A stretch of 64,000 bases of DNA from an uncultured Acidobacteriota bacterium. GTDB taxonomy: Bacteria; Acidobacteriota; Polarisedimenticolia; Polarisedimenticolales; Polarisedimenticolaceae. The notes under the pieces are model-generated. The model was not told the origin of the DNA. It saw only the letters and a list, made by a program, of their open reading frames with translations, and ran no database searches. Within the stretch, counting starts at the first letter, position 1, and each line of letters starts with the position of its first letter. The stretch spans positions 3,040,847-3,104,846 of the forward strand of contig CAWGOF010000003.1 of the NCBI GenBank assembly GCA_963824225.1, given 5' to 3'. Positions 22,385 through 51,436 of the stretch are shown in pieces. The translations under genes were made by a program, and so were the position numbers.

Positions 22385-22476
22385 CCAAAACGGGGACACT
22401 CTCCGTTTCTGCCCCAAATGAGGCAACACGCCCTCTGCCCCAAATGGGGTGAAAAATGAGAGTGTCCCCGTTTCTG
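22385..22476. repeat. palindromic repeat family 2, copy B (partially duplicated internal unit)
   Basis: aaaacggggacactctccgtttctgccccaaatgaggcaacacgccctctgccccaaatggggtgaaaaatgagagtgtccccgtttctgc; its ATGAGAGTGTCCCCGTTTCTGC end provides the start codon of the VWA gene. Confidence 0.8.
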
Positions 22477-24684: not shown

Positions 24685-24702
24685 GAGTGTCCCCGTTTCT
24701 GC
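24638..24702. repeat. palindromic repeat family 2, copy C
   Basis: ataaaggggacactcttggtttctgccccaaatgaggcaggaaactaggagtgtccccgtttctgc; contains stop of VWA gene. Confidence 0.8.
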
Positions 24703-24715
24703 TAGGCTCGGAAAC

Positions 24716-27100: not shown

Positions 27101-27367
27101 ATGGCACCGAAGGCATATCGAAAGGCCCGGCGACATATTGATGTCTCGGTTGGCGAGTCGGTTCGAATCATGCGGGAACTCCAGGAGCTGAGCCAGAACG
27201 AGCTGTCTGAGCAGACGGGGATTCCGCAGTCGACGCTATCGGCTATCGAGAATGATCGGGTGAACCTTGGTGTCGAGCGTGCGAAGGTGCTGGCGCGAGC
27301 ATTGAGGTGCCATCCGGCAGTGCTGGTCTTTCCGGGTTGGGTGGTTGGCGATGAATCGGCGGCATAA
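27101..27367 (+). CDS. higA: HigA-like XRE-family HTH antitoxin
   Basis: 88 aa; HTH ...MRELQELSQNELSEQTGIPQSTLSAIENDRVNLGVERAKVLARAL; 3 bp after higB stop. Confidence 0.65.
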   Translation: MAPKAYRKARRHIDVSVGESVRIMRELQELSQNELSEQTGIPQSTLSAIENDRVNLGVERAKVLARALRCHPAVLVFPGWVVGDESAA

Positions 27368-27488
27368 CAATCGGACGCAGCGTTCCGATCAAGGCCAACT
27401 CGGCCGTCAAGCGGATGCTCGACAGGTCGAAGCAAGGCCCGTCGTAGCCGTTTCGAAACCCCGGTTCCTGGACTTTCCTGCCGCGCGA

Positions 27489-27755
27489 ATGGATACTCCG
27501 ATCATGCGCGTGCCGCCAGACCTCGTCGAACTCGCGAAAAGCTACTCCGGAAAGTGGGTCGCTCTGCATCCGGACGATGGGTCTGTCGTGGCAGCGGGGC
27601 AATCGCCTCGGGAAGTCATGGAAGTCGCGGAGGCCGATGGGATCGACGAACCGTTCGTGCTTCACGTCTTCGATGACTACGGCCAGCTTGCTCGACCCCG
27701 GCCCCAGTTGGACGGCGAAAGCCTAGTCCCAGCCCCACCCGTGTGCCGAGGGTAG
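27489..27755 (+). CDS. hypothetical small protein
   Basis: 89 aa from ATG 27489 (MDTPIMRVPPDLVELAKSYSGKWVALHPDDGSVVAAGQSP...); start uncertain. Confidence 0.3.
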   Translation: MDTPIMRVPPDLVELAKSYSGKWVALHPDDGSVVAAGQSPREVMEVAEADGIDEPFVLHVFDDYGQLARPRPQLDGESLVPAPPVCRG

Positions 27756-27765
27756 GATACCGAGC

Positions 27766-27990
27766 ATGAGCATCGAAGAAATCGAGGCCGAAGCGCTCAA
27801 GCTGGATCCCAAGGCACGAGCACGGTTGGCCGAGAGGCTCCTCGAGAGCCTGGAGACGCTCTCCGATCAAGAGGCGGAACGCCTGTGGGCAGAGGAGGCC
27901 GCTCGGCGCGACGCCGACCTGGACGCGGCGCCGGAGACGGCACGCCCTGCCGCTACCGTCCTGCGTGAGGCTCGGGCCCGGCTGAAGTGA
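27766..27990 (+). CDS. putative addiction-module antitoxin (ParD/Phd-like small acidic helical protein)
   Basis: 74 aa; MSIEEIEAEALKLDPKARARLAERLLESLE... ; stop overlaps start of downstream toxin (TGAATG). Confidence 0.5.
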   Translation: MSIEEIEAEALKLDPKARARLAERLLESLETLSDQEAERLWAEEAARRDADLDAAPETARPAATVLREARARLK

Positions 27991-28284
27991 ATGGCCCGAC
28001 ACGAGTTTCACCAACTCGCCGAACGCGAACTGCACGACGCTACCCGATACTACGAGCTCGAGAGTCCAAGGTTGGGGCGCTCCTTCCTCAATGAGATCGA
28101 GCGGTGTCTGCGGGCGATTGTGGAACATCCCGAAGCGGGGAGGATCCTGCTCGGCTCCGTGCGTCGTCGCCTTCTGTGGCGCTTCCCTTATGCGCTCCTG
28201 TACAAGATCACGCCGGATAGCATCCGAATTCTGGCGGTCATGAACCTGAAGAGGCGTCCGACCTACTGGGTCGGGCGTGAGTGA
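27991..28284 (+). CDS. ParE/RelE-family toxin
   Basis: 97 aa; ...RYYELESPRLGRSFLNEIERCLRAIVEHPEAGRILLGSVRRRLLWRFPYALLYKITPDSIRILAVMNLKRRP typical ParE pattern. Confidence 0.6.
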   Translation: MARHEFHQLAERELHDATRYYELESPRLGRSFLNEIERCLRAIVEHPEAGRILLGSVRRRLLWRFPYALLYKITPDSIRILAVMNLKRRPTYWVGRE

Positions 28285-33822: not shown

Positions 33823-35013
33823 TTGCCAGGCGAGCCGACCTGCGCGCATCGCAGGCGGCCGCAGCGCCGACTCGAGCTTGCCGACCTCGTCCGTGGCTAC
33901 GGCGATCGTCTACGCTCTATCCGGCGCCTGAGCGGCGAGCAGCTTGCGGCCCTGCGCGCCATCGAGCGCTGTCGTACCCCGGCCCTCGGGGGCAGCCGCG
34001 AAGTCTGCACCAACTGCGGTGCCCAGCGCATCCTGTGGCACTCGTGTCGCAACCGCCACTGCCCGAAGTGCCAGACGACGGCCAAGGAGCGCTGGCTCGA
34101 AGCGCGCCTCGAGGAGTTGTTGCCCGTCGACTACGTGCATGTGGTCTTCACGCTGCCGCACGAGTTGAACGCCTTGGCTCTTGCCTGTCCCCGACTCGTC
34201 TATGGGCTCCTGTTTCAAACCGCCGCAGCGACGCTGCTTGCATTCGCACGCGACGGCCGGCATCTGGGCGCCGAGCCCGGAATCGTCGCCGTCCTGCACA
34301 CCTGGGGCCAGAATCTCTCCCTGCACATCCACCTGCACTGCATCGTCACCGCGGGTGGTCTCGACCCGACGCAACGCCGGTGGATCCGCCGGCCGGGGGG
34401 CTACCTGTTTCCGGTCCACGCCCTGTCCCGCGTGTTTCGCGGCAAGTACCTTGACGCTCTGCGCCACGCGCTCCGCGATTCTCCGGATCTCGCGCGCAGC
34501 GTTTCCATCCAGCAGCTTTGGCAGCACGACTGGGTCGTCTACGCCAAGAAGCCCTTCGGTGGCCCACGCCAAGTCCTGGACTACCTGGCTCGCTACACAC
34601 ACCGCGTCGCGCTGACCAACGATCGATTGCTCGAGTTGCACGAGGGGATCATCGGGGTCCGTTGGCGTGACTACGCACACGGCGGCAAGCGCAAGGTCCT
34701 CCGACTCCACGCCGCAGACCTGCTCGGACGCTTCGTGCTCCACGTTCTCCCGCGCGGCTTCCGACGCGTGCGCCACTACGGGTTGCTCGGCAATCGTCAC
34801 AGGTCCGCCAAGCTCGCCGCGTGTCGGCGCTACTTCGGCATCGCCTCGATCGATCGGTCCACATCGACCGATACTGCATCGTCTCCCTTGCGTCGGCTTG
34901 GCATCGATCCTCGTCGCTGCCCGGCCTGCGGTGCAAGCCAACTCCAACATGAACCCGTCCTACCACAGCCTCCCGTAGCTCGCGCCCGCGCGCCCACTGG
35001 CACCGCATGCTGA
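33823..35013 (+). CDS. IS91-family transposase
   Basis: 396 aa; N-terminal zinc-binding CTNCGAQRILWHSCRNRHCPKCQ, HTW and HxH motifs (AVLHTWGQNLSLHIHLHCIV), C-terminal Y-containing region. Confidence 0.7.
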   Translation: MPGEPTCAHRRRPQRRLELADLVRGYGDRLRSIRRLSGEQLAALRAIERCRTPALGGSREVCTNCGAQRILWHSCRNRHCPKCQTTAKERWLEARLEELLPVDYVHVVFTLPHELNALALACPRLVYGLLFQTAAATLLAFARDGRHLGAEPGIVAVLHTWGQNLSLHIHLHCIVTAGGLDPTQRRWIRRPGGYLFPVHALSRVFRGKYLDALRHALRDSPDLARSVSIQQLWQHDWVVYAKKPFGGPRQVLDYLARYTHRVALTNDRLLELHEGIIGVRWRDYAHGGKRKVLRLHAADLLGRFVLHVLPRGFRRVRHYGLLGNRHRSAKLAACRRYFGIASIDRSTSTDTASSPLRRLGIDPRRCPACGASQLQHEPVLPQPPVARARAPTGTAC

Positions 35014-36006: not shown

Positions 36007-38135
36007 GTGAACCATAGCGAAATCGTCAGCTTTCTCTGGGGCGTCGCGGACCTCATCCGCGACACCTTCAAGCGCGGCAAGTACCAGGACGTCATCCTGC
36101 CGCTCACCGTCCTGCGCCGCCTCGACTGCGTGCTCGCCGGCACCAAGGAGAAGGTGCTCGGCGAAGCAGGCCGAGCTGAGGGGCAAGAAGCTCGAGAACC
36201 TCGACCCGCAGCTGCGCAAGGCCTCCGGCTTCGCCTTCTACAACACCTCCCGCTACGACTTCGAGAAGCTCCTGGCCGACGCGCCGCACCTCGCCGCCAA
36301 CCTGCGCAACTACATCGCCGGGCTTCAGCCCCAACATGCGCGAGGTGCTGGAGAAGTTCGACTTCGACAACACCATCAGCAAGCTCGACGAGGCGGGGCT
36401 TCTCTTCCAGGTGCTCGAGCGCTTCAAGAACGTCGACCTGCACCCCGACAGGATCGACAACCCGACGATGGGCACGATCTTCGAGGAGCTGATCCGGAAG
36501 TTCAACGAAGCGCTGAACGAGAATCCCGGCGAGCACTTCACGCCGCGCGACGTCGTGCACCTGATGGTGGATCTGATGCTCGCCGGCGACGAGACGCGCG
36601 ATCCGCGCCAAGAGGGCGATCGTCGCACGGTCTACGACCCCTGCTGCGGCTCGGGCGGCATGCTGATGATCACCAAGGAGCACATCACGGTCGGCCTGCG
36701 GAAGAACGGCGAGCTGCTCCGGCCCGCGATCAACCCGGACGCCGAGATCCATCTGTTCGGCCAGGAGGTGAACCCCGAGACCTGGGCGGTCTCGAAGTCC
36801 GACCTGTTCATGAAGGACCCGACCGGCCGCGACGCCGACAACATCGCCTTCGGCAGCACGCTCTCCAACGACCGCCACGCCGGCCAGACCTTCGACTACC
36901 TGATCGCCAATCCGCCCTACGGCAAGGACTGGAAGCGCGACGAGGACGCCGTGCGCGCCGAGCACGAGCGCGGCGCCGCGGGCCGGTTCGGCCCGGGCCT
37001 GCCGCGGATCAGCGACGGCCAGCTCCTGTTCCTGCTGCACATGCTGGCCCACGCGAAGGACCCCGAAGGAAGGCGGCTCGCGCATCGCCATCATCATGAA
37101 CGGCTCGCCGCTCTTCACCGGCGACGCCGGCAGCGGCGAGAGCGAGATCCGCCGCTTCATCCTGGAGAACGACCTGCTCGAGGCGCTGATCGCGCTCCCC
37201 GAGCAGCTCTTCTACAACACCGGCATCGCGACCTACGTGTGGGTGGTGACGAACCGCAAGGCGCCGGCGCGCAAGGGCAAGGTGCAGCTCATCGACGCCA
37301 CCTCGTTCTGGGTGCCGATGCGCAAGAGCCTCGGCGACAAGCGCCGCGAGATCCCGCTCGAGCGCGCGCAGGACATCCTGAAGATCCTCGTCCGACTTCC
37401 AGGACGGCGAGACGCGGAAGGTGGCGAAGGACGGCAAGGAAGAGGACGTCGTCGTCAGCCGCATCTTCCCGACCACCCACTTCGGCTTCCGCAAGATCAC
37501 CGTCGAGCGCCCGCTCCGGCTCAACTTCCAGGCGAGCGCCGGAGCGCATCGCCCGCCTCGAGGAGGAGAAGGGCTTCCAGGCGCTGGCGCAGTCGAAGAA
37601 GAAGGGCGCCGCGGGCGCGAAGGAGCAGGCCGAAGGGCGCGCGCTGCAGGAGGCGATCCGCAAACTCGTGCGGGCGCTCCCCGGCACGCTCTTCAAGGAC
37701 CGCGACGAGTTCGAGCGCTTGCTCGACGCCGCCGCGAAGAAGGCCGGCATCAAGCTCCCGGCCGCCGGTCACGCAAGGCCATCCTCTCCGCGCTCTCCGA
37801 GCGCGACGAGACGGCCGCGATCTGCCGCGACAAGGACGGCGATCCCGAGCCCGACCCCGAGCTGCGCGACACCGAGAGCGTGCCGCTCGCCGAGAGCGTC
37901 GAGGCGTTCTTCGAGCGCGAGGTCAGGCCCCACGTCCCGGACGCCTGGATCGACACGTCCAGGCGCGACCCGAAGGACGGCCAGGTCGGCTTCGTCGGCT
38001 ACGAGATCAACTTCAACCGCTACTTCTACCGCTACACCCCGCCGCGCCCGCTCGAGGAGATCGAGGGCGAGATTCGGCGGCATCGAGCAGGACATCCTGC
38101 GGATGCTGGCCGAGGTGACGGGAGGGTCTGTCTGA
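36007..38135 (+). pseudogene. hsdM: Type I restriction-modification system methyltransferase subunit (HsdM), disrupted by at least 7 frameshifts
   Basis: GTG start; HsdM N-terminus NHSEIVSFLWGVADLIRDTFKRGKYQDVILPLTVLRRLD, catalytic NPPYG ([13 protein letters not shown]), HsdM C-terminal region; coding sense hops between frames near 36165, 36325, 37060, 37395, 37540, 37765, 38075. Confidence 0.7.
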
Positions 38136-38203
38136 GGTCTGAGTGGCAGGTGCCGGCACTTGGTCGGATCTGCCGACGTTCTCTGCCGAAAGGTTGGAAT
38201 CAA

Positions 38204-38233
38204 ATGTCGGCACTTGCGATTATGTGCCGACAT
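38204..38233. promoter_or_regulatory. operator-like inverted repeat ATGTCGGCAC-N10-GTGCCGACAT upstream of abiEi (plus related direct repeats at 38151-38180)
   Basis: perfect 10-bp arms, 16 bp upstream of abiEi ATG; AbiEi antitoxins are known autorepressors binding inverted repeats. Confidence 0.45.
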
Positions 38234-38249
38234 CGACTACCATTCCGCC

Positions 38250-38858
38250 ATGGACAAGCCGCGCCTGACCAGGGCACGTCTGAACGCCGCGGGGGTGGGA
38301 GCCTTCTTCCGGCCGCGTGACGTGCTGCCGCTCGGGGTGTCGTTCCGCCAGCTCCAGCGCCTCGTCGCCGAAGGCACGGTCGAGAAGCTCGGGGGCGGTG
38401 TGTATCGGCTCTCCGAAGTCGAGCCGAACGAGCTCGAGACCATAGCGATGGTGGCCTCGGCCGCACCCAACGCGATCGTCTGCCTGCTCACCGCGCTGCG
38501 CGTCCACGGGATTGGAACCCAGGCACCGCACCAGGTGTGGCTGGCGATCGACCGCAAGGCACGCATCCCGAGACGGCTCCCGGCCAAGGTCCGCATCGTC
38601 CGCTTCTCCGGCCAGATGCTGACCTACGGCGTCGTCACGCAGTCCATGCAGGGGGTCAGGGTCCGCCTCACCAATCCTGCCCGCACCGTCGTCGACTGCT
38701 TCCGCTACCGGAACAAGATCGGCCTCGACGTCGGCATGGAGGCGCTGCGCGACGCGGTGCGCTCGCGCAAGGCGATGGTCGGTGAGATCGACCGCGCGGC
38801 CGAGGTGTGTCGCATCCGCACGGTCATCGGACCCTACCTGGAGGCGCTGTCGGCATGA
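38250..38858 (+). CDS. abiEi: AbiEi-family antitoxin/transcriptional regulator
   Basis: ~200 aa; N-terminal winged-helix region (…[46 protein letters not shown]...) typical of AbiEi; stop overlaps abiEii ATG (ATGA). Confidence 0.55.
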
Positions 38859-39799
38859 GCGGGCGGGAGGTCGAAGGCCGGGCGGAATCAATCCGGCAAC
38901 GCCTACGGAACGAGCTTCGCGCCCGCGGCGAGGACGTGACGCTCGGGCTGCCGCGCTACGCGGTCGAGCGGTTCCTGTACCGGCTCGGCCGGTCGCGTCA
39001 CCGTGAGCGCTTCGTGCTGAAGGGAGCGACGCTCTTCGCGATCTGGGGTACGGCCTACCGGCCGACACGCGATGTCGACTTCACGGGCTACGGCAGCCCG
39101 GACGCGCAGGACGTGATCACTGCCTTCCGCGAGATCTGCAACACCCCGGACGACGTCGATCAGCTCGTGTTCGACACGGACTCGATCACGGCGGAGCCGA
39201 TCCGGGACGGCTCGGAGTACGACGGCCTTCGCATCCGGATCCGGGCGCGGCTGGGAGCATCCGACATCCCGATTCAAGCGGACGTCGGATTCGGCAATGC
39301 GATCGTTCCCGGCCCGGAAGAGCAGGAGTATCGAACGATTCTGGGCGATCCGCCGCCGCGAATCCTGGCCTACCCGCCCGAGTCCGTCGTGGCCGAGAAG
39401 CTGCACGCGATGGTGATGCTGGGCGAGCGGAACAGCCGCTACAAGGACTTCTACGACCTCTACGCGATGGCAGGCGCCTTCCATTTTGAGCGGCCCACGC
39501 TCGTGCAGGCGGTGAGGGCAACTTTCGAGCGCAGGAGCACACCGGTGGAGGCAGCGCTCCCCGCGGCGCTCGCGGCTCCCTTCTACGCCAAAGAAGCCCG
39601 TGCGGCGCAGTGGCGCGCGTACGTGGACCGCAACCACCTCACCGAAGCTCCCGCCGACTTCGGTCGCGTAGGCGATCGGCTCACCGCCTTCCTGCAACCC
39701 GTCTGGGCCGACGTCGCCTCCGGCACCGCGACGGCCGGCGACTGGCAAGGCGGGGGACCGTGGTCGCGGGGATCCTCGAGCGGGAGTCCGCCGCCATGA
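38855..39799 (+). CDS. abiEii: AbiEii-family nucleotidyltransferase toxin (DUF1814)
   Basis: 314 aa; ...RFVLKGATLFAIWGTAYRPTRDVDFTGYG... nucleotidyltransferase-fold G-S/D-xD region; pairing with AbiEi. Confidence 0.6.
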   Translation: MSGREVEGRAESIRQRLRNELRARGEDVTLGLPRYAVERFLYRLGRSRHRERFVLKGATLFAIWGTAYRPTRDVDFTGYGSPDAQDVITAFREICNTPDDVDQLVFDTDSITAEPIRDGSEYDGLRIRIRARLGASDIPIQADVGFGNAIVPGPEEQEYRTILGDPPPRILAYPPESVVAEKLHAMVMLGERNSRYKDFYDLYAMAGAFHFERPTLVQAVRATFERRSTPVEAALPAALAAPFYAKEARAAQWRAYVDRNHLTEAPADFGRVGDRLTAFLQPVWADVASGTATAGDWQGGGPWSRGSSSGSPPP

Positions 39800-41651
39800 C
39801 CATCCATCCCCGCCCACCCCGCGAGATCGACGGCAAGGGCCGCACCGTCCGCGAGCTGCTCGCCGGCCGAAAGTACTCGATCGACTACTACCAGCGCGAG
39901 TACAAGTGGCAGCAGAAGCAGGTCGCCGAGCTGATCGACGACCTCGCGGCCAAGTTCCTGGAGAGCCATGAGGACGGCAACGAGCGCAGCGCCGTCGCCG
40001 ACTACGGCCACTACTTCCTCGGCTCGATCATCATCAGCGACAAGGACGGCCAGAAGTTCATCATCGACGGCCAGCAGCGCCTCACCACGCTGACGCTGCT
40101 CCTGATCTTTCTCCACCACAAGCTCGGGGACGCCGAGCAGAAGGGGCAGATCGCCGATCTCATCTTCTCGCAGAAGTTCGGCAAGCGCTCGTTCAACCTC
40201 GACATCCCCGAGCGCACCGCCTGCATGGAGGCGCTCTACAAGGGCGAGGAGTTCGCCGACGCCGACGCGCCCGAGTCCATCGCCAACATCCTGGCCCGCT
40301 ACGCGGACCTCGAGGACCTGTTCCCCGAAGAGCTCGCCGGCGCCGGCGCTGCCGTACTTCGTGGACTGGCTGGTCGAGAACGTGCACCTGGTCGAGATCA
40401 CCGCCTACTCCGACGGCGACGCCTACACGATCTTCGAGACGATGAACGACCGCGGGCTCTCGCTCACCCCCGCGGACATGCTCAAGGGCTACCTGCTCGG
40501 CGAACATCACCGACGCCGACAAGCGCACCCGCGCGAGCCGCATCTGGAAGGAGCGGGTGCAGGCGCTGGCCGAGCTCGGCAAGGACGAGGACGCCGACGG
40601 CATCAAGTCGTGGCTGCGCAGCCAGTACGCCGAGAGCATCCGCGAGCGCAAGCGCGGCGCAGCGCCGCAGGACTTCGACCTGATCGGCACCGAGTTCCAC
40701 CGCTGGGTGCGCGACCACGACGGACCGCCTCGGTCTCACGGCCAGCGCCGAGTTCGCTCGCTTCATCGAGCGCGACTTCGCGTTCTACGGCCGCTGGTAC
40801 GAGCGCCTGCGGCGCGCGGCCGAGGCGCTCGCGCCCGGGCTCGAGTGCGTCCACTTCAACGCCCAGCACAACTTCACGCTCCAGTACCCGGTGCTGCTTG
40901 GCGCCGCTCCGCGTGGAGGACGACGAGGCCGGCGTGCTGCGCAAGCTCCGCGTCGTGGCCGCTTACCTCGACATCCTGATCCACCGCCGCATCTGGAACT
41001 GGCGCGCGATCGACTACTCGACGATGCAGTACGCGATGTTCCTCGTGATGCGCGACATCCGCGGCAAGGGCGTCGCCTGAGCTGGCCGCGCTGCTGCGCG
41101 AGCGCCTCGACGCCGAGACCGAGACCTTCGCGAGCAACGACCGCTTCCGGCTGCACGGCATGAACGGCCGCCAGATCCACCGGCTGCTGGCGCGCATGAC
41201 GGACTACGTGGAGACGCGCTCCGGCATGGCCTCGCGCTACCCCGAGTATGCCCAGCGCGGCCGGAAGGGCTACGAGATCGAGCACATCTGGGCCGACCAC
41301 CCCGAGCGGCACACCGACGAGTTCGCGCACCCGAGCGAGTTCCAGGAGTACCGGAACCGCATCGGCGGCCTGCTGCTCCTGCCGAAGAGCTTCAACGCCA
41401 GCTACGGCGATCTGCCCTACGCCGAGAAGCGCGAGCACTACGTCGGCCAGAACCTGCTCGCGCGGAGCCTCCACGAGCGCGCGTACGACCACAACCCGGG
41501 CTTCCGGCGCTTCATCGAGGAGAGCGGCCTGCCGTTCCGCGCGCACGCCGAGTTCAGGAAGGCCGATCTCGACGCGCGGCAGGTGCTCTACCAGCGACTG
41601 GCCGAGCGGATCTGGAGCCCGGAGCGGCTGGGACAGGAGGCGGCGTCGTGA
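39796..41651 (+). pseudogene. GmrSD-like (DUF262 + DUF1524) modification-dependent type IV restriction endonuclease, multiply frameshifted
   Basis: N-terminal DUF262 with FIIDGQQRLTTL motif; C-terminal DUF1524 HNH-like region GYEIEHIWADHPERH...; sense switches frames near 40345, 40500, 40725, 41085. Confidence 0.55.
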
Positions 41652-43015
41652 GCGGGGCGACGTACAGCGAGCGTGCGGGAGCGCTGCGGCGGTACAAGCC
41701 ATACCCGGCCTACAAGGACTCCGGCGTCGAGTGGCTGGGGGAGATTCCGGCGCATTGGGATCTGCGCCGGCTCAAGACCAGCGCTGCTGTTCAGCTCAGC
41801 AACGTCGACAAGAAGTCGGTTGAAGGCCAGGAAGCAGTGCGGCTCTGCAACTACACCGACGTCTACTACCACGAGCGCATCTCAGCAAACCTGGACTTCA
41901 TGGCAGCCACGGCGACATCGGACCAAGTGCGCCGCTTTGCACTACGCAAGGGCGATGTGCTCATCACCAAGGACTCGGAGTCTTGGACCGACATCGCGGT
42001 GCCCACGGTCGTAGCGGAAGATCTGCCCGGAGTGTTGTGCGGCTATCACCTCGCCCACATCAGACCCACTCACGTTTGCCACGGACCCTTTCTCGCGCGG
42101 GCCTTCAGCGCGATTGGCCCTCGGGATCAGTTTCAAGTCGCGGCCAACGGCATCACTCGTTTCGGGCTTGGCGGCGATGCGATTGCAACCGGGCTGTTCG
42201 CAATGCCCCCCGAGCCCGAGCAACGCGCCATCGCCGCCTTCCTCGACCGGGAGACGGCGCGGATCGATGCGCTGGTGGCGAAGAAGGAGCGGCTGATCGA
42301 GTTGCTCCAGGAGCAGCGCACCGCCCTCATCACCCGCGCCGTCACCAAGGGCCTCGACGCGAATGCCCCGATCTCAGGCACGGGCTCTACCGTCTTTCCT
42401 CCGGTCCCGTCGGGGTGGGAGTTGCGGAAGCTGCGGCGTCTCCTCACGCGGGTGAAACGACCCGTCAAAGTTGACCCTGACTCTGAGTACCGGGAGATCG
42501 GCATCCGCTCGTGGGGCAAAGGCATCTTTCACAAGGAACCCGTGCGCGGGGTTCTGCTCGAGGACAAGAGTGTGTTCGGTATCGAGCCGGGCGACTTCGT
42601 GCTCAACATCGTCTTCGCATGGGAAGGCGCAGTCGCCGTTGCTGCCGAACCGGAGCGTGGAATGGTCGGCTCGCACCGTTTTCCCACGTTTCGCACCTCC
42701 GAGGAAGTTGATCTGGACTACCTCTTGATGGTTTTTCAGACCAAGCATGGCCGTGCGTTGATGGAGGTGAACTCGCCAGGTGCTGCGGGTCGCAACAAGA
42801 CGATCAGGGTAGACCAGTTTCTCGATGAGCTGGTGCCGCTGCCTCCGGTCGCGGAACAGAAGGAGATTGTCCGACGGTTTAGGAGCGATGAAGTGCGGCT
42901 CGGCGGACTCGTCGGGCGGCTTTGCGAGGCCATCGACCGCCTCAAGGAGCTGCGCACTGCCCTCATTTCCGCCGCGGTGACGGGCAAGATCGACGTGCGG
43001 GAGGTCGAGGCATGA
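41648..43015 (+). CDS. hsdS: Type I R-M specificity subunit (HsdS), two target-recognition domains
   Basis: 455 aa; GTG start overlapping upstream stop; two TRD halves separated by conserved coiled-coil repeats (…LQEQRTALITRAVTKGLD… and …LKELRTALISAAVTGKIDVRE). Confidence 0.75.
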   Translation: MSGATYSERAGALRRYKPYPAYKDSGVEWLGEIPAHWDLRRLKTSAAVQLSNVDKKSVEGQEAVRLCNYTDVYYHERISANLDFMAATATSDQVRRFALRKGDVLITKDSESWTDIAVPTVVAEDLPGVLCGYHLAHIRPTHVCHGPFLARAFSAIGPRDQFQVAANGITRFGLGGDAIATGLFAMPPEPEQRAIAAFLDRETARIDALVAKKERLIELLQEQRTALITRAVTKGLDANAPISGTGSTVFPPVPSGWELRKLRRLLTRVKRPVKVDPDSEYREIGIRSWGKGIFHKEPVRGVLLEDKSVFGIEPGDFVLNIVFAWEGAVAVAAEPERGMVGSHRFPTFRTSEEVDLDYLLMVFQTKHGRALMEVNSPGAAGRNKTIRVDQFLDELVPLPPVAEQKEIVRRFRSDEVRLGGLVGRLCEAIDRLKELRTALISAAVTGKIDVREVEA

Positions 43016-44700
43016 GGGTCACCAAGGCGCGCATCCGGAACTTCCGTGGCCTGAAGGACGTCGGGTTGGAACTCGGTTCGACCACGGTGCTGATCGGCGA
43101 GAACAACTCCGGCAAGACGTCGGTGCTGGACGCCCTCCGGCTCTGCCTCAGGGAGTTGGGACCCCGGCGCCGGGTGGTCTTCGACAGCTTCGACTTCCAT
43201 CTGAAGGACGGAGCGGCGGAGCCGCAGTCGGCAGACCCTATCGAGATCGAGATCAGGTTCTCGGAGACTTCCAAGGGAGAATGGAACGACGCGCTGGTTG
43301 GTCGCCTGAATCGCCAGAAGATCCTGCAGGTCGACGGCGACGATCTGAACCACGTCATGCTCCGCGTCACCTGCACCTACGACCCGACGAACCGAGACTT
43401 TGCTCAGGACTGGGCCTTCCTGAACCTCGAGGGGAAGCCGTTGACCGCAGTGTCCGAAACGGCACTGGGAACCCTGCAACGCGAGGTCGCCTTCTACTAC
43501 CTGAGCGCGCTCCGCGATGCCGCGTGGCACTTCGATGCCAAGGGGCCCTTCTGGAGGCCGTTCCTCAAAGACAGCCAGCTCACGGAGGCCAGGAAGGCTG
43601 AGGTCGTGGAGAAGCTCCGGGAGATCAATGAGCTGGTCGTCGCCTCCCACACCAGCTTCGAGCACGCCATAGAACGGCTCGGCCGAGTGCGGGACGTGGT
43701 GCCGATGGCGGGCGGAGACATGGTGTCCATCGAGGCCGTACCGGGGCGGATGTTCGACATGCTGGCCAAGGCGCAGGTGCACTTGGGCGCGTCGACCGGA
43801 GCGAGAATCCCGATCGGGAGACACGGCGAGGGAACCCAGAGCCTTTCCGTCCTGATGCTCTTCTCCGCGTTTCTGAGTACGAAGCCGGAGGGCAGCCCCG
43901 TGGTGGCGCTCGAGGAGCCGGAAGCGCACTTGCATCCATCGGCGGTCCGGGCCCTCTGGGACATCCTCCGCTTGATCGACGGCCAGAAGTTGATCTCGAC
44001 CCACAGCGGCGATCTACTCTCTGAGGTGGATGTTCTCAATGTGCGTCGTCTCGCCATGGCGGAGGACGGCATTCGAGCCTATCGCGTCCCCTCCACGCTC
44101 CTGTCTGCGGAGGAGACGCGAAAGTTCAACTACCACATCCGCAGATCACGGGGCGAGCTCCTCTTCGCTCGCTGCTGGCTCCTAGTCGAGGGGGAGACCG
44201 AAGCCTGGGTTTATCCTGCGGCCGCTCGTGCTCTTGGGATGAAGCTCCACCGTGATGGCGTGCGGATCGTTGAGTACAGCCAGTCCGACGTAGGACTCCT
44301 GGCCAAGGTCGCGAACTCGCTGGGTCTCCTGTGGTTCTGTGTCATCGACGATGACTCGGGTAGAAGCGAGTACGAACGGAACGTGCAGGACAACCTCGCG
44401 GGGGCATCTGAGAGCGACCGACTCCGCTTTCCGTACAGGAACATAGAAACGCACCTGCTCGAGAGTGGCTACGACGCGATCTATGACCCGTACATGCCGG
44501 AGCAGAAGCGCGCCCTACTGACGAAGCACCCGGGCGATGACGGCTACTGGGCCGACTTCGCAGACCAGCTACCGAAACGACGCAAGACCCGAGCAGCGGC
44601 CGATGTAGCCGCTGCGATGGAGGCGAAGGGCAAGGAGGGGGTGACGGACGAGCTCCGCGGCATCCTCGAGAAGGTCGTGGCTCTGGCGCGAGGTGAGTGA
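43012..44700 (+). CDS. gajA: OLD-family ATPase/Toprim endonuclease, GajA-like
   Basis: 562 aa from ATG overlapping hsdS stop; Walker A GENNSGKTS, ABC-type ATPase region, C-terminal Toprim LLVEGETEAWVYP; partner UvrD-like helicase immediately downstream = Gabija-type architecture. Confidence 0.65.
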   Translation: MRVTKARIRNFRGLKDVGLELGSTTVLIGENNSGKTSVLDALRLCLRELGPRRRVVFDSFDFHLKDGAAEPQSADPIEIEIRFSETSKGEWNDALVGRLNRQKILQVDGDDLNHVMLRVTCTYDPTNRDFAQDWAFLNLEGKPLTAVSETALGTLQREVAFYYLSALRDAAWHFDAKGPFWRPFLKDSQLTEARKAEVVEKLREINELVVASHTSFEHAIERLGRVRDVVPMAGGDMVSIEAVPGRMFDMLAKAQVHLGASTGARIPIGRHGEGTQSLSVLMLFSAFLSTKPEGSPVVALEEPEAHLHPSAVRALWDILRLIDGQKLISTHSGDLLSEVDVLNVRRLAMAEDGIRAYRVPSTLLSAEETRKFNYHIRRSRGELLFARCWLLVEGETEAWVYPAAARALGMKLHRDGVRIVEYSQSDVGLLAKVANSLGLLWFCVIDDDSGRSEYERNVQDNLAGASESDRLRFPYRNIETHLLESGYDAIYDPYMPEQKRALLTKHPGDDGYWADFADQLPKRRKTRAAADVAAAMEAKGKEGVTDELRGILEKVVALARGE

Positions 44701-46584
44701 TGACTTTGAACCTGGACTCATTGAACGAGAACCAGCGCAAGGCCGTCGAATGGCAGGATGGTCCCCTGCTCGTCCTCGCTGGTCCGGGGTCTGGAAAGAC
44801 TCTGGTCTTGACTCTGCGCGTGGCGCGTCTACTGGAGGAGCACGAGGACGCCGCGGTGCTCGCCCTCGCTTTCACGAGCAAGGCGGCCGCGGAGATGCGC
44901 GAGCGAGTCGATCGCCTTCTGGGGCAACACGGCGACCGTGCGCAGCTCTGCACCTTCCATGCGTTCGCTACCGACGTGCTGCGGCAGCATGGTAGCCATG
45001 TGGGGATTCAGCCCGACTTCTCTGCTGATCCAGGAGGAGGATCGGGTGGCCTTGGTGCAAGAGATCGTCGAGGATCTGACGGAGAATGGCCACGTCTTCC
45101 CGACCGATCACCGGAACACCCTCGCGCTCGTGGATCGCCTGTTCGCCTCCTCCTACGACGGTGCTCGAGAGGCTTCTTCCCTCGTGCACACTCCTGCGTG
45201 GGTACCGGACTTGTTTGCGACTTACTGCCAGCGGCTTGTCGCCGCGAACCGGTTGGATTTCGGTGCCCTGCTCCACTTCGCCCGCAAGCTCCTGTCAGAG
45301 CAAGGCGGTGTGACTCGCGTGTTGCGGGCGGGCTGGAGCTACGTGTGCGTCGACGAGTTCCAGGACACGAACAAGGCGCAGTACGACCTGCTGAGACTGC
45401 TCGTGCCACCAAGTGCACCGAATCTCTTCGTGGTCGCGGACGATGATCAGATCATCTACCAGTGGAACGGCGCGAGCCCCGAGCGTTTGCAAGCCCTGCA
45501 GCAGGATCACGGGATGGAAGTCGTTCAGCTCCCGGAGAACTTCCGGTGTCCGAAGGAGATCATCGATCTGGCGAACCGACTCATCGCTCACAACCGACTC
45601 CGGGCCGCGGACAAGAAGCCGCTGACCACCAGTCGGCGTGCCGCGTCGAGCGATGACCTCGTCCGGGTGCGTGCGTACTGCACACCCGAGGAGGAAGCGG
45701 CGGGCATCGCCGCCGACATTCGCGATCGCGGGCTGGCGCCTGTAGACGTGGCCGTTCTCGCCCGGACGACGAAGCTGCTCAATGGAGCGGCCGAGGCGCT
45801 AGGAGCCGCAGGTCTCGACGCTCATGTTACCCAGCGCAAGGCGGAGTTCGAGACTCCTTTGGTGCGCGTGGTCTTCCACGCGCTTCGGCTCGCGAATTCC
45901 CGGCACGACCGCGATGTGCTGCGACGTCTGTGCGTCGCTTGGGGCGCCCTCACGGACCACGATCTGGAACTCGGAGACGTGATCGCCGGGGCCACACTTG
46001 CCGGGGGGGACTTCCTGCGCGCGTGGGCTGATGCCGCGGCGGCTGGTGCGGAGGGAAGTCATGCGGATCTACTCGGCCGCCTTCGGTCATCGCTGGTGGA
46101 TCGCCTCGACTTCCCGGGCGTTGTCGATTGGTTTCTGTCCGATGGCGCGACGACGCCGGCGGACGTCGACGACCCGGCGCTGGCGACCGAGCTCGAGACC
46201 TGGCAAGAGCTGCACGGCGAGCTGGTGCGAGAGCACGGCGAGGATGCACTGACCTTGAACGTCTACCTGCAGCACATGGACCTGGCACCGAAGGGTCCCC
46301 GGCCGGGCCCGAACGCCGTCCGTTGCATGACGATGCATGGAGCGAAGGGGCTCGAGTTCCGGCACGTGTACCTGATCGGAATGGCGCAGGAGGTCTTCCC
46401 CTCCTTTCAGGCGCTTCGCAAAGGGGCGAACAGCCGGGAAGTCGAAGAAGAGCGCAGGAACTGCTTCGTCGCGATCACACGGGTTCAGGAAACGCTGACG
46501 TTGACATATGCGCGTCAGTACTACGGCTACCGCAAGAATCGCTCGCAGTTCCTCGAGGAGCTGGGGCTCTCGGAGGGCTCGTGA
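44700..46584 (+). pseudogene. gajB: UvrD/PcrA-like superfamily-1 helicase, GajB-like, with one frameshift near 45025
   Basis: LVLAGPGSGKT Walker A, VCVDEFQDTN (Walker B/DEAD-like), ...; frame A ends ...GIQPDFS, frame B continues LLIQEEDRVALVQEIVE; start overlaps gajA stop (TGATG). Confidence 0.55.
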
Positions 46585-46637
46585 TTCTTCATCCGGGTTA
46601 CCGCTCCAGATGCCCTTTCTCGACCGAGACACCGCCA

Positions 46638-46741
46638 TTGTCGCCAAGGCCTGCGAGGCCATCGAGCGCCTCAAGGAACTCCGCACCGCCCTCATCTCCG
46701 CCGCGGTGACGGGCAAGATCGACGTGCGGGAGGAGGTCGCA
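46638..46741 (+). repeat. duplicated 3' end of hsdS (~90% identical to 42918-43015) forming direct repeats around the gajAB insertion
   Basis: encodes ...AKACEAIERLKELRTALISAAVTGKIDVREEVA* versus hsdS end ...CEAIDRLKELRTALISAAVTGKIDVREVEA*; stop overlaps hsdR ATG exactly as at the hsdS-gajA junction. Confidence 0.8.
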
Positions 46742-49700
46742 TGAGCCCCGAGATCTCCGAGCGCTCCTTCGAGGAGGCGATCGAGTGCGCGCTGCTCCAG
46801 CACGGCCCCGACGCCTGCGCCGAGCGACGCGACGGCTGTCCGCGAGACGCCGCCGCCGTACGGCGACACGCCGCCGGGCGGCTATCGCAAGCGCAAGCCC
46901 GAGGACTACGACCGCACGCTCTGCCTGCTGCCGCGCGACGTGGTGGACTTCGTCCTCGCCACGCAGCCCAAGGAGTGGAAGAAGCTCGAGCAGCACCACG
47001 GCGCGGCGGTCCAGCGAGCAGTTCCTGAAGCGCCTCGCCGCCGAGATCGAGCGGCGCGGCGCGCTCGACGTGCTGCGCAACGGCATCAAGGACTCCGGCT
47101 GCAAGTTCCGGCTCGCCTACTTCCGCCCCGCGAGCGGGCTCAACGAGGAGACGCGGCGGCTGCACGCGGCGAACCTCTTCGCCGTGGTGCGCCAGCTCCG
47201 CTACAGCACGAAGAACGAGAAGAGCCTCGACCTGGTGCTGTTCCTGAACGGCATCCCGATCTTCACCGCCGAGCTCAAGAACCCGCTCAACGGCCAGGAC
47301 GTCGAGGACGCGATCCGCCAGTACAAGACCGACCGCGACCCGCGCGAGCCGCTGCTCGCCTACGGCCGCTGCCTCGCGCACTTCGCGGTGGACCCGGACC
47401 TGGTCTACGTCACCACGCAGCTCGCCGGGCCGAGGACGCGCTTCCTGCCCTTCAACCAGGGCAAGTTCGGCGGCGCCGGCAACCCGCCCGTGCCGCCCAC
47501 GCGCAAGCGGCTACGCGACCGCCTACCTCTGGGAGGAGACCTGGGCGCGCGACAGCGTGCTCGACCTCGTGCGCCAGTTCATCCACGAGGTCGAGGAGGA
47601 GGACGACAAGGGGCGCAAGACCGGCAAGCGCTTCCTGATCTTCCCGCGCTACCAGCAGCTCGACTGCGTGCGCAGGCTCGTGACCGACGCGCGCGCGAGC
47701 GGGCGCGGGGCAGCGCTACCTGATCCAGCACTCGGCCGGCAGCGGCAAGAGCTTCACCATCGCCTGGCTCGCCCACCAGCTCTCGACGCTCCACGACGCG
47801 AGCGACCGGCGCGTCTTCGACTCGATCGTCGTCATCACCGACCGGCGCGTGCTCGACCGCCAGCTCCAGACGACGATGCGCCAGTTCGAGCAGACGCTCG
47901 GCGTGGTGGAGAACATCGACACCACCTCGCGCCAGCTCAAGGAGGCGCTCGAGTCGGGCAAGACGATCATCGTCACCACGCTGCAGAAGTTCCCGGTGAT
48001 CGCGAAGGAGATCGGCGAGCTGCCGGGCAAGCGCTTCGCCGTGATCGTGGACGAGGCGCACTCGTCGCAGTCGGGCGAGAGCACGAAGAGCCTCGAAGGC
48101 GGTGCTCGCGTCGGGGTCGCTCGAGGAGGCCGAAGCCGAGGAGAGACGGAGGCAGGACGCCGGAGGAGGAGCTCGAGAGCTACGCTCCTGGCCGAGATGG
48201 AGAAGCGCGGGCACGCTCCCGAACCTCTCGACGTTCGCCTTCACCGCCACGCCGAAGCCGAAGACGCTGGAGCTGTTCGGCACGAAGCGCGCCGACGGGA
48301 AGTTCGCGCCCTTCCACCTCTACAGCATGCGCCAGGCGATCGAGGAGGGGTTCATCCTCGACGTGCTGGCGAACTACACGACCTACAAGGCCTACTGGCG
48401 GCTGCTCAAGAAGGTCGAGGACGACCCGCGCTACGACAAGAAGAAGGCCGAGTACCTGCTCAAGTCGTTCGTCGAGCTGCACCCGCACGCGATCGGCGAG
48501 AAGGTGCGGATCATGCGTCGAGCACTTCGCCGCGCAGGTGCAGGGCGAGATCGGCGGCAAGGCCAAGGCGATGATCGTCACGCGCTCGCGCCTGCACGCG
48601 GTGCGCTACAAGCTGGCGGTGGACGAGTACCTCGCCGAGCGCGGCTATCCGTTCAAGGCGCTGGTGGCGTTCTCCGGCACGGTCCAGGACGGCGGGCAGT
48701 CCTACACCGAGTCCGAGCATGAACGGCTTCCCGGAGGCGCAGACCGCCAAGACCTTCGAGCGGCCCGAGTACCGGTTCCTGATCGTCGCCAACAAGTTCC
48801 AGACCGGCTTCGACCAGCCGCTGCTGCACACGATGTACGTGGACAAGAAGCTCGGCGGCGTGAACGCGGTGCAGACGCTCTCGCGGCTCAACCGCACGCT
48901 ACCCCGGAGAAGAAGGGCACGATGGTGCTCGACTTCGCCAACGAGGCCGACGAGATCAAGGCCGCCTTCGAGCCCTACTACGAGACGACGCTGCTCTCCG
49001 AGGCGACCGACCCGAACCTGCTCTACGAGATCCAGACCCGCCTCGCCGCCTTCCCGGTCTACACCGAGGCCGACGTGGACGCCTTCGCCAAGGTCTACTT
49101 CGACCCCAAGGCGACGCAGGACCGGCTCTACGCCGTGCTCGCGCCCGTGGTCGAGCGCTTCCAGGCAGCTCTCGCGCCGAGGAGCAGCACGACTTCCGCG
49201 GCCAGCTCACCGACTACGTGCGGCTCTACGCCTTCCTCGCCCAGGTGCTGACCTTCGCCGACGCCGACCTCGAGAAGCTCTACGTCTTCGCGCGGCACCT
49301 GCGGCGGCTGCTGCCCGCCGACCGCGCCGAGCTGCCGCGCGAGGTGCAGCAGAACATCGACATGGAGTCGTACCGGATCCAGCAGACCGGCAGCGGCAAG
49401 ATCGCGCTGGAGCGCAGGCCCGGCGTGCTCGAACCCGTGAGCACCAAGCAGCGGCCACGGCGTCGACGCCGGAGGAGCTGGAGACGCTCTCGCGCATCAT
49501 CGCCGAGCTGAACGAGCGCTTCGGACTCAACCTCGGCCCCGAGCACCGCGTGACGCTCGGCCAGATGATGGAGAAGCTCGACGACGACGCGGCGCTCGAC
49601 GCGGCGGCGCGGGTCAACACGCGCGAGAACGTGCGGCTCACCTTCGACCAGAAGGTCGAGCACGTGATCCAGGAGATCGTCGACTCGAACTTCGAGCTCT

Positions 49701-50336
49701 ACAAGCGCATCACCGACGACCGCGCCTTCGGCGAGGCGATCAAGAACTTCCTGTTCGACCAGTACCTGCGCGCTCACCGCAACGCCGAGGAGCTGATCAA
49801 GCGCGGCGAGTCGAAGACGCTGGAGTTCAAGTCCACCCTGCGCTGGAGCCTCAAGGAGGACCGGCAGGACGACAAGGGCGTGACGCACGCCGTCCTGAAG
49901 ACGATCGCCGCGTTCCTGAACACCGAGGGCGGCGATCTCCTGATCGGCGTGGCGGACGACGGCGCGATCGTCGGCATCGAGCACGACCAGCTCGAGAACG
50001 ACGACAAGTTCATGCGCCACCTCGCCCAGGTCGTGCGCAACGGTCTCGGCGACCGTGCCGGTACCTGCATCGATCCGAAGACCCAGATCGTGCAGGGCAA
50101 GACGGTCTGCGTCGTGAGCTGCCAGCGGAGCCCTGAGCCGGTGTTCCTGAAGTGGAAGGGGATGGAAGACGCGCCGGACGGCGACTTCTTCGTCAGGAGC
50201 GGCCCCGGGACCGTGAAGCTCCCTCCCGAGAGCGCGCGTCGAGTACATTCGAACGCGGTTCGCCGGGTTCCTAGTCGAAGAGAAACCAGACGCACCATCA
50301 AGGGGAGCGACAACGGGTCCCGGCGCGGACACCGCA
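46741..50336 (+). pseudogene. hsdR: Type I restriction enzyme R subunit (HsdR), multiply frameshifted, with in-frame C-terminal AlbA_2/Schlafen-like (divergent AAA_4) domain
   Basis: HsdR N-terminal nuclease region, SF2 helicase motifs (QHSAGSGKSFT, DEAHSSQ, ...), C-terminal ...[20 protein letters not shown]...; at least 8 frame switches between 46990 and 49460; 49790-50235 encodes [13 protein letters not shown]...[18 protein letters not shown] AlbA_2-like domain. Confidence 0.65.
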
Positions 50337-51436
50337 TGAGCTACTTCATGGATTTGTTTTCGCCCGAAACATATGAGGCGTTTGCCAAGTCAGACAGGAC
50401 CATTTCGGGGTTTCGCCCCCGGCAGCGAAACATCGCCCAACGCATCAGGCCGGGGGACAAACTCGTCTGCTATATGACTCGGCTGTCGCGCTGGATCGGC
50501 ATTCTCGAGGTGGAGAATGGGCCTTTCAACGACGCGACGCCGATCTTCTATCCGGAGGCAGATCCTTTTACGGTCCGGTTTCGCGTTAGAGCGAAGGTCT
50601 GGCTGCCGTTGGAGAAGACGGTGCCAATCCACGCCTCAACGGTCTGGGGCAGTCTGTCCTTCACTAGCAAGCTTCCCCACTCCTCTACTGCTTGGACTGG
50701 AAAGGTCCGAGGCAGCCTGGTGGCTCTATCGGACGCCGACGGCGAATTCCTAGAGTCGCTGCTGGCCCGGCAAGCTACGGCTGGTCAGGAATACGCCCTG
50801 GATTCAGATGAGCAGAAGAAGCTCCGGGCAACGAAGATCAGGCGTCTCGAGAAGGACGTCACGGTTACCGTTCCAGAAGACGCCGAGCCCGCCGCACCGC
50901 CTGTAGTCGTCGGTGAAGTGCGAGAGTCCATTCGCATCCAGGCGCTTCTCGCCGAAGTCGGTAGCCGAATGGGGCTACAGATTTGGATTCCTCGATCTGA
51001 CCGCGCCGCCGTGGAAACTGAATGGCGGAGAGACCACCCGCCAATCCTCGACCGCCTACCCCTCAACTACGATGACACGACCCTCAGGACTATCGAGCAG
51101 ATCGATGTGCTGTGGCTAAAAGGCCGCTCCATCAAGCGGGCCTTCGAGGTTGAGCATACGACGTCCGTGTACTCGGGAATTTTGCGGATGGCCGACCTGC
51201 TTGCGCTCCAGCCAAACATGGATATCCGGCTCCATATCGTCGCGCCGCCCGCTAGGCGCGAGAAAGTCTTCCAGGAGATCCTGCGGCCAGTCTTCTCTCT
51301 CCTAGATCGGGGCCCTCTCTCCGAAAGCTGCACCTTCGTGTCCTATGAGAGCGTTCGTGAGCTCGCCGATCAGCAGCATTTGGAACACCTATCGGATACA
51401 GTCCTCGATGAATACGAGGAGCAAGCCGGGGATTAG
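50337..51436 (+). CDS. PUA-like (EVE/ASCH-type) domain fused to putative PD-(D/E)xK-like nuclease domain; candidate modification-dependent restriction enzyme
   Basis: no stop separates it from hsdR frame, but GC drops to ~58% from 50337 and codon usage changes; N-terminal [18 protein letters not shown]...[25 protein letters not shown]-like pattern; C-terminal ...[19 protein letters not shown]... nuclease-like motif. Confidence 0.4.

Follow-up and report, generated by a model that had tools for sequence, protein, structure and literature searches.

Insertion-only frameshifts in a composite Type I restriction–modification operon of an uncultured Acidobacteriota bacterium: probable consensus errors rather than gene decay

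Type I restriction–modification (R-M) operons are known to harbour further defence genes: prrC and the rlo genes are linked to hsd genes, and BrxU, a member of the GmrSD family, is found inside BREX islands. In some pathogens, Type I hsd genes are also phase-variable by means of repeat tracts. Here, we describe a composite operon of this sort from an uncultured member of the Polarisedimenticolaceae (Acidobacteriota; assembly GCA_963824225.1), located in a 64,000-nt stretch of contig CAWGOF010000003.1 (positions 3,040,847–3,104,846, forward strand), to which we refer as the window; coordinates below are counted from its first letter. As in other Type I operons with accessory genes, hsdM, hsdS and hsdR belong to one coupled operon, with defence genes lying between them. 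In the deposited sequence, however, hsdM, hsdR and a gmrSD-like gene are broken by numerous frameshifts, while most of the interleaved genes are intact. We believe that the frameshifts in these three genes are consensus errors of assembly or polishing, which arose when related copies of the same genes were merged, and not the outcome of gene decay; our own estimate for this scenario is a probability of about 0.8.

An intact version of the same hsdM-gmrSD-hsdS-hsdR backbone is present in three syntenic operons: L081 and L082, from the European Nucleotide Archive (ENA), and L084, from a Planctomycetes metagenome-assembled genome (MAG) held at NCBI. In contrast to operons of this type, the window has a Gabija pair that separates hsdS from hsdR and is flanked by a duplicated 3′ end of hsdS, and it is likewise specific in having an EVE-nuclease gene coupled to the end of hsdR. 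The locus also resembles frameshift-truncated long-read genomes and MAGs, of the kind revealed by IDEEL-type tests, where many single-base indels break conserved open reading frames (ORFs) in one assembly and their removal restores the full length. Usual long-read errors, though, are homopolymer deletions or length errors scattered genome-wide, whereas the window shows insertions outside homopolymers, at sites of single-nucleotide polymorphism (SNP), and only in genes that are ~90% shared. Such a pattern points to a consensus of mixed haplotypes rather than to base-calling error. Finally, the locus is similar to decayed or phase-variable R-M systems in that frameshifts interrupt restriction and modification genes; but it lacks the stops, deletions, repeat tracts and excess substitutions, and each gene has taken far more hits than inactivation needs.

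Distribution and nature of the frameshifts

The G+C content of the window is ~68%, so spurious ORFs are common and coding frames had to be placed via codon-position composition. Pfam was run on stop-to-stop segments, and the defence genes were also matched against PADLOC profiles. The genes form a single operon on the + strand, in which ATGA-type overlaps couple most adjacent genes, in the order hsdM-abiEi-abiEii-gmrSD-hsdS-gajA-gajB-hsdR(AlbA_2)-EVE nuclease:

36007–38135, + strand: hsdM, Type I methyltransferase; 9 frame-breaking events, 11 inserted nt
38250–38858, + strand: abiEi, intact, 202 aa (Pfam AbiEi_4 and AbiEi_1; PADLOC AbiEi, E = 7e-64)
38855–39799, + strand: abiEii, intact, 314 aa (Pfam AbiEii, E = 2e-46; PADLOC, E = 5e-101)
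39796–41651, + strand: gmrSD-like DUF262/DUF1524 gene; 5 single-base insertions (Pfam GmrSD_N and GmrSD_C)
41648–43015, + strand: hsdS, intact, 455 aa (PADLOC Specificity_I, residues 14–454)
43012–44700, + strand: gajA, intact, 562 aa (Pfam AAA_15, DUF2813 and OLD-like TOPRIM; PADLOC GajA)
44700–46584, + strand: gajB; one frameshift near 45020 (PADLOC GajB)
46652–46745, + strand: remnant of an hsdS 3′ end, 94 nt; direct repeat of 42923–43016, 90% identical (repeat search)
46741–50339, + strand: hsdR with a C-terminal AlbA_2 domain; 15 events, 17 inserted nt (HSDR_N, SWI2_SNF2/ResIII, T1R_D3-like and SLFN_AlbA_2)
50336–51436, + strand: EVE (PUA-like) protein with a restriction-endonuclease-like C-terminus, intact, 366 aa (Pfam EVE; PADLOC REase_II)

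Events were called by frameshift-aware protein-to-DNA alignment to intact homologues. Aligned to the intact 707-aa homologue P0001 (94.2% identity), hsdM is interrupted at approximately 36163, 36320, 36597, 36622–23, 37062, 37391, 37536, 37764–69 and 38078, and its HsdM_N and N6_Mtase domains are spread over three Pfam-matched frames. The gmrSD-like gene, 93–94% identical to P0241 and P0242, has its 5 extra nt near 40342, 40499, 40721, 40898 and 41075, with GmrSD_N and GmrSD_C found by Pfam in separate frames. Against P0121 (1185 aa, 93.5% identity), hsdR shows events at approximately 46820, 47015, 47508, 47700, 48094, 48144, 48181, 48214, 48513, 48716, 48900–01, 49167, 49177, 49450, 49465 and 50239, and its four Pfam-matched domain regions lie in different frames. 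None of the three genes has an in-frame stop. AbiEi, AbiEii, HsdS, GajA and the EVE protein, for their part, are encoded by one ORF apiece. Thus, 29 events fall in 7.58 kb of backbone and a single one in 7.60 kb of cassettes (binomial with n = 30 and p = 0.5; P of at most one in the cassettes ~3e-8).

A preliminary description of this DNA, made from the sequence, had reported such clustering in hsdM, hsdR and gmrSD next to intact abiEi/abiEii, hsdS, gajA and PUA-nuclease genes, and both observations are borne out by the splitting of the Pfam domains and by the event counts. Its own counts (at least 7 in hsdM, about 4 in gmrSD, at least 8 in hsdR and 1 in gajB) hold as lower bounds for what are now 9, 5, 15 and 1 events. 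The span assigned to the feature, 36007–49500, begins correctly at the start codon of hsdM but ends too early: the HsdR family naturally possesses a C-terminal AlbA_2 domain, so hsdR reaches 50339, with the last frameshift near 50239.

The ~45 kb of flanking sequence, which is as GC-rich as the operon or richer, showed no split genes and contains intact long ORFs (e.g., 10710–13379, 19050–21410, 22456–24684 and 24668–26734). Two candidate regions of flanking frameshifts, 27.2–29.7 kb and 55–57.3 kb, were rejected: the Pfam-matched segments there are separate small genes (e.g., an antitoxin and ParE), and the remaining segments of both regions have no Pfam match and display no split domain.

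To characterize the inserted bases, the DNA was compared with the intact syntenic operons L081, L082 and L084 and, in a second comparison, with 8–24 DNA homologues; 80 metagenomic loci with a gmrSD homologue were also fetched. A check against orthologues had been called for in the preliminary description: in both comparisons, every difference that sets the window apart in hsdM, gmrSD and hsdR is an insertion, with 33 nt inserted and 0 deleted. All of the inserted bases stand in runs of at most 2 nt, none of the 33 lying in a longer homopolymer, and homopolymer runs are no denser in the frameshifted genes than in the intact ones. Hence, the earlier suggestion of localized indel errors stands as far as the errors are concerned, while GC-rich homopolymers as their cause do not.

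Removal of the 33 bases yields ORFs of 705 aa (hsdM), 616 aa (gmrSD) and 1193 aa (hsdR), all without stops. Over the columns conserved in at least 97% of homologues (389 + 634 + 288 = 1311), the corrected proteins show 0 private differences, as against medians of 3, 5 and 3 among the homologues (120 per family). These figures bear directly on the idea that hsdM, hsdR and gmrSD are genuine pseudogenes, lost after self-toxicity or under relaxed selection, which would leave an orphan hsdS amid working cassettes. It is true that the frameshifts are present in the deposited sequence and affect restriction functions and not the other cassettes, and that the gajB event, which lies within a short CT repeat, might reflect true slippage. 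However, one mutation suffices to inactivate a gene, and yet 9, 5 and 15 were found. Drift to 9–15 indels should also have brought nonsense codons, deletions and many private substitutions, so decay is not supported: nonsense codons, deletions and larger lesions are all absent, and private substitutions at the conserved columns are fewer than in any intact homologue. Bacterial indel spectra lean towards deletions and slippage, which also counts against decay, since the events in the window are non-slippage insertions. Overall, we regard decay of restriction functions, as proposed in the preliminary description, as very unlikely, and the orphan status of hsdS loses its footing together with it.

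The identity of the inserted bases is telling. In 25 of 30 cases, the inserted base matches the other allele found among homologues at the adjoining polymorphic column. For instance, the window reads CTC-G-AAG where homologues have CTC AAG or CTG AAG, and GGG-C-TTC where they have GGG TTC or GGC TTC; similarly, CAC-G-CTC corresponds to CAC CTG or CAG CTG, and CTC-G-GCG to CTC GCG or CTG GCC. The match rate expected by chance is 0.30 analytically, under random placement, and 0.31 for simulated random insertions after realignment; in 12 replicates, the simulations produced at most 16 matches out of 30, and the observed value has a binomial P of ~2e-9. For pseudogenization this represents one more difficulty, as no known mutational process inserts the alternative allele of a neighbouring site.

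The 29 backbone sites share no motif and have no repeat tract. This matters for the idea that the R-M genes undergo phase variation or programmed recoding, an explanation that might be entertained given the phase-variable hsd genes of some pathogens and the position of the gajB event in a (CT)3 tract. Beyond the missing tracts and motifs, an operon with dozens of independent switches would never have all of them in phase, and the intact homologues have no such sites. We therefore consider this the least credible of all the explanations, with hardly any probability left to it.

Two further properties of the backbone sequence were evaluated and set aside as signs of a consensus. The G+C content at third codon positions (GC3) of the backbone, ~0.975, is the highest of the set but may just reflect a very GC-rich host. 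The window is also the most central sequence at third codon positions; this was not used, as the homologue set had been picked by similarity to the window and is subject to selection bias, which affects the GC3 comparison too.

Origin of the inserted bases

The alternation of broken and intact genes follows how widely the DNA is shared. The shifted genes are 90–92% identical at the DNA level to operons of many other genomes (against L081: hsdM 91%, gmrSD 92% and hsdR 91%). The clean genes have DNA identities of 56–78% or no close relative: against L081, abiEii shows 75% (75–78% across homologues) and hsdS 56%, and none of the fetched loci has a close DNA relative of gajAB or the EVE gene. The exception is the short abiEi, which is 87–90% identical (87% together with its spacer against L081), does not differ in length from its counterparts in L081 and L084, and is also clean. 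In the light of these data, the preliminary description was right to hold that the alternation is not what random sequencing error would produce, but a non-random assembly artefact, which it leaves possible, agrees with the affected genes being the ones shared at 90–92%.

The scenario that we favour is as follows. A second, closely related copy of the backbone would have contributed reads that piled onto the copy in the window; this second copy might belong to another community member, to another strain, or to a paralogue within the genome. At some of the differing sites, the consensus would then have kept both alleles in tandem (e.g., CTC/CTG becoming CTCG), adding one base per site. Foreign reads would find a match in hsdM, gmrSD and hsdR and none in the cassettes, which could explain the alternation of broken and intact genes; being unique to the genome, abiEii, hsdS, gajAB and the EVE gene would have drawn no such reads and stayed clean. 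Several observations are of the kind that such merging should leave behind: the spectrum is insertion-only (33 against 0), the alternative allele is matched in 25/30 cases, the corrected ORFs are intact, and the events are confined to the most widely and highly shared segments. To our knowledge, no mutational process writes both SNP alleles in tandem, while this can happen when a consensus caller is given piled-up reads of two related sequences. The source contig, held by NCBI/ENA, is 3.55 Mb long, which suggests a long-read assembly. From these features of the sequence, we infer that read mixing acted on by a consensus caller is probably the cause, and a long-read platform the likely setting. 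Frameshift truncation is a recognized weakness of long-read MAG assemblies, and related species or strains in metagenome samples often have long near-identical DNA in common (PMC9262707).

Several points weigh against this scenario. Mixing of haplotypes is deduced from the letters of the consensus, and the alternative alleles come from homologues of other samples rather than from the source sample. A search for other variants of the backbone in the same run led to Logan-assembled homologues of which the closest stem from other, unrelated runs. With 87–90% identity, abiEi would be expected to have ~2.7 events at the backbone rate but has 0, P(0) being ~0.07. We also know of no published description of exactly this signature of both alleles in tandem. 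An apparently intact 264-aa hsdM fragment on another Logan contig was considered as evidence for an intact hsdM and discarded, since frame +2 is also open in the window at 36180–38132.

Errors might also have arisen with no mixing of haplotypes, from a low-depth or unpolished long-read consensus, for example where multi-mapping stretches were skipped by short-read polishing. The confinement of errors to segments prone to multiply-mapping reads is in line with such an origin, as are the perfect corrected ORFs, the chromosome-sized contig, and the known truncation of genes by frameshifts in long-read MAGs (PMC9262707). But residual errors of a random kind should comprise deletions as well and tend to fall in homopolymers, and the observed ratio is 33:0, with no event in a run longer than 2 nt; moreover, random insertions leave the 25 of 30 matches to alternative alleles unexplained. 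Such an origin thus seems unlikely to us, if less so than any of the biological explanations. Another speculation is that the insertions are real and come from a templated process between diverged backbone copies, such as gene conversion or mismatch repair gone awry, with the two alleles left in tandem. Were it true, the shared restriction genes would have been selectively destroyed while the unique cassettes were spared. We rate it as more improbable still than gene decay.

Defence modules, cassette slots and surroundings

The modules of the operon can be assigned as follows. The Type I R-M genes are represented by HsdM, with HsdM_N and N6_Mtase domains and a close homologue (P0001) that matches PADLOC MTase_I over its full length; by HsdS, with two target-recognition halves and central and C-terminal conserved repeats (repeat family D2); and by HsdR, which combines a nuclease domain at its N-terminus with an SF2 helicase motor and whose homologue P0121 matches REase_I. 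As deposited, two of the three genes are not uninterrupted ORFs (9 events in hsdM and 15 in hsdR). The corrected 616-aa ORF of the gmrSD-like gene has an N-terminal DUF262 and a C-terminal DUF1524 nuclease domain; its family is nearest to PADLOC HEC-06 and Orf5 and weakly related to mREase_IV; as a GmrSD-like type IV restriction enzyme, the protein would be expected to cleave DNA in a modification-dependent manner. In the AbiE module, the AbiEi antitoxin precedes the AbiEii nucleotidyltransferase toxin, according to both Pfam and PADLOC, with an ATGA overlap. Gabija consists of GajA (ATPase and TOPRIM), followed by GajB, a UvrD-like helicase. GajA matches its PADLOC profile at E = 2e-198 (residues 1–561 on a 569-position profile) and is 67% identical to its best relative among GTDB representative genomes; GajB matches at E = 3e-169 over profile positions 110–633. 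The C-terminus of the EVE protein (residues 196–328) matches PADLOC REase_II at E = 1e-13, and the EVE (PUA-like) fold reads modified bases in other proteins. The start of the EVE gene overlaps the hsdR stop (ATGA), and no exact match to the protein was found in the large sequence collection.

Searches with conceptual translations returned intact homologues of 705–708 aa for HsdM, 1170–1206 aa for HsdR and ~616 aa for GmrSD, and the backbone protein families are 85–93% identical across many phyla. The hsdM-gmrSD-hsdS-hsdR backbone occurs in Planctomycetes, Acidobacteriota, Gemmatimonadota, Proteobacteria and other phyla (loci L081–L164). In all 120 of the 120 closest HsdR homologues, the Type I R subunit is extended at its C-terminus by a fused Schlafen/AlbA_2 DNA-binding domain. 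The hsdM/gmrSD junction is either empty (0–80 nt) or occupied by abiEi/abiEii (about 1.6 kb), abiE being a presence/absence cassette inside the backbone, and the gmrSD/hsdR interval is either 1.33–1.38 kb long (hsdS only) or longer. The operon has the appearance of a scaffold that is widely transferred and offers slots for cassettes. A Type I backbone of pan-phylum distribution that accepts AbiE and Gabija cassettes accords with the known organization of defence islands; what is new in the operon is the combination, the defence modules and the kind of scaffold both being known.

The gajA-gajB pair is bracketed by a 94-nt direct repeat (42923–43016 and 46652–46745) of the 3′ end of hsdS, including the ATGA junction. 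Such an arrangement points to recombination at the conserved 3′ end of hsdS as the route by which the Gabija cassette came to lie between hsdS and hsdR. Two unrelated Type I operons, L003 and L004, likewise have gajAB immediately after hsdS, there with no duplicated remnant.

The gajB event is different in kind from those of the backbone. Near 45020, 2 nt are lost in TTCTCT(CT)GCTG, a (CT)3 tract where homologues read PDFSLL, and the two frames overlap at 45015–45025; the longer gajB ORF lacks GajB profile positions 1–109, and the first 107 residues are in another frame. A Logan contig from run ERR11630401, an accession for which no literature was found, encodes an identical GajA followed by a 628-aa GajB (1887 nt, as against 1885 nt in the window), so an intact gajB allele exists in that read set. 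On the same contig, which corresponds to window positions 42328–46745, hsdS is split into two ORFs of 184 aa and 63 aa, being one ORF in the window; this apparent break means that the contig is not free of errors itself. With gajB intact but hsdS split in Logan, the two assemblies disagree on indels both ways. The gajB event could therefore be real strain variation or an error. Exact look-ups of the guessed corrected GajB (S or T at the junction) and of the HsdM C-terminus (S, A or V) returned nothing, but a control fragment expected to be identical was likewise absent, probably since proteins truncated by contig ends are not kept, which makes these searches uninformative.

Finally, we would like to comment on the surroundings of the operon, whose upstream edge is marked by one more element:

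33823–35013, + strand: IS91-family transposase, intact (Pfam Y2_Tnp and Zn_Tnp_IS91); upstream island edge

An identical transposase protein was seen on 2 contigs. Further upstream, at 27306–28281, there are small toxin-antitoxin genes (DUF5678, an Unstab_antitox antitoxin and a ParE toxin), and the G+C content is lower from about 27 kb onwards. Together, the toxin-antitoxin genes, the transposase and the lower G+C content suggest a mobile genomic island. A gene for an ECF sigma factor is found downstream of the operon. A search among plasmids revealed no close DNA relative of the locus.

Implications for the reading of the operon

Overall, the frameshift pattern is very probably not a biological feature, and the operon is probably intact despite the frameshifts in its deposited sequence. 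Most likely, the locus represents an ordinary composite defence operon, predicted to be functional. Some caution is thus in order: an annotation pipeline would label hsdM, hsdR and gmrSD as pseudogenes and hsdS as an orphan, and the locus could be misread as a case of defence-system decay. A signature that can be recognized from sequence alone, namely insertion-only events outside homopolymers that match the neighbouring alternative allele and fall in widely shared genes, could serve to flag false pseudogenes in long-read MAGs.

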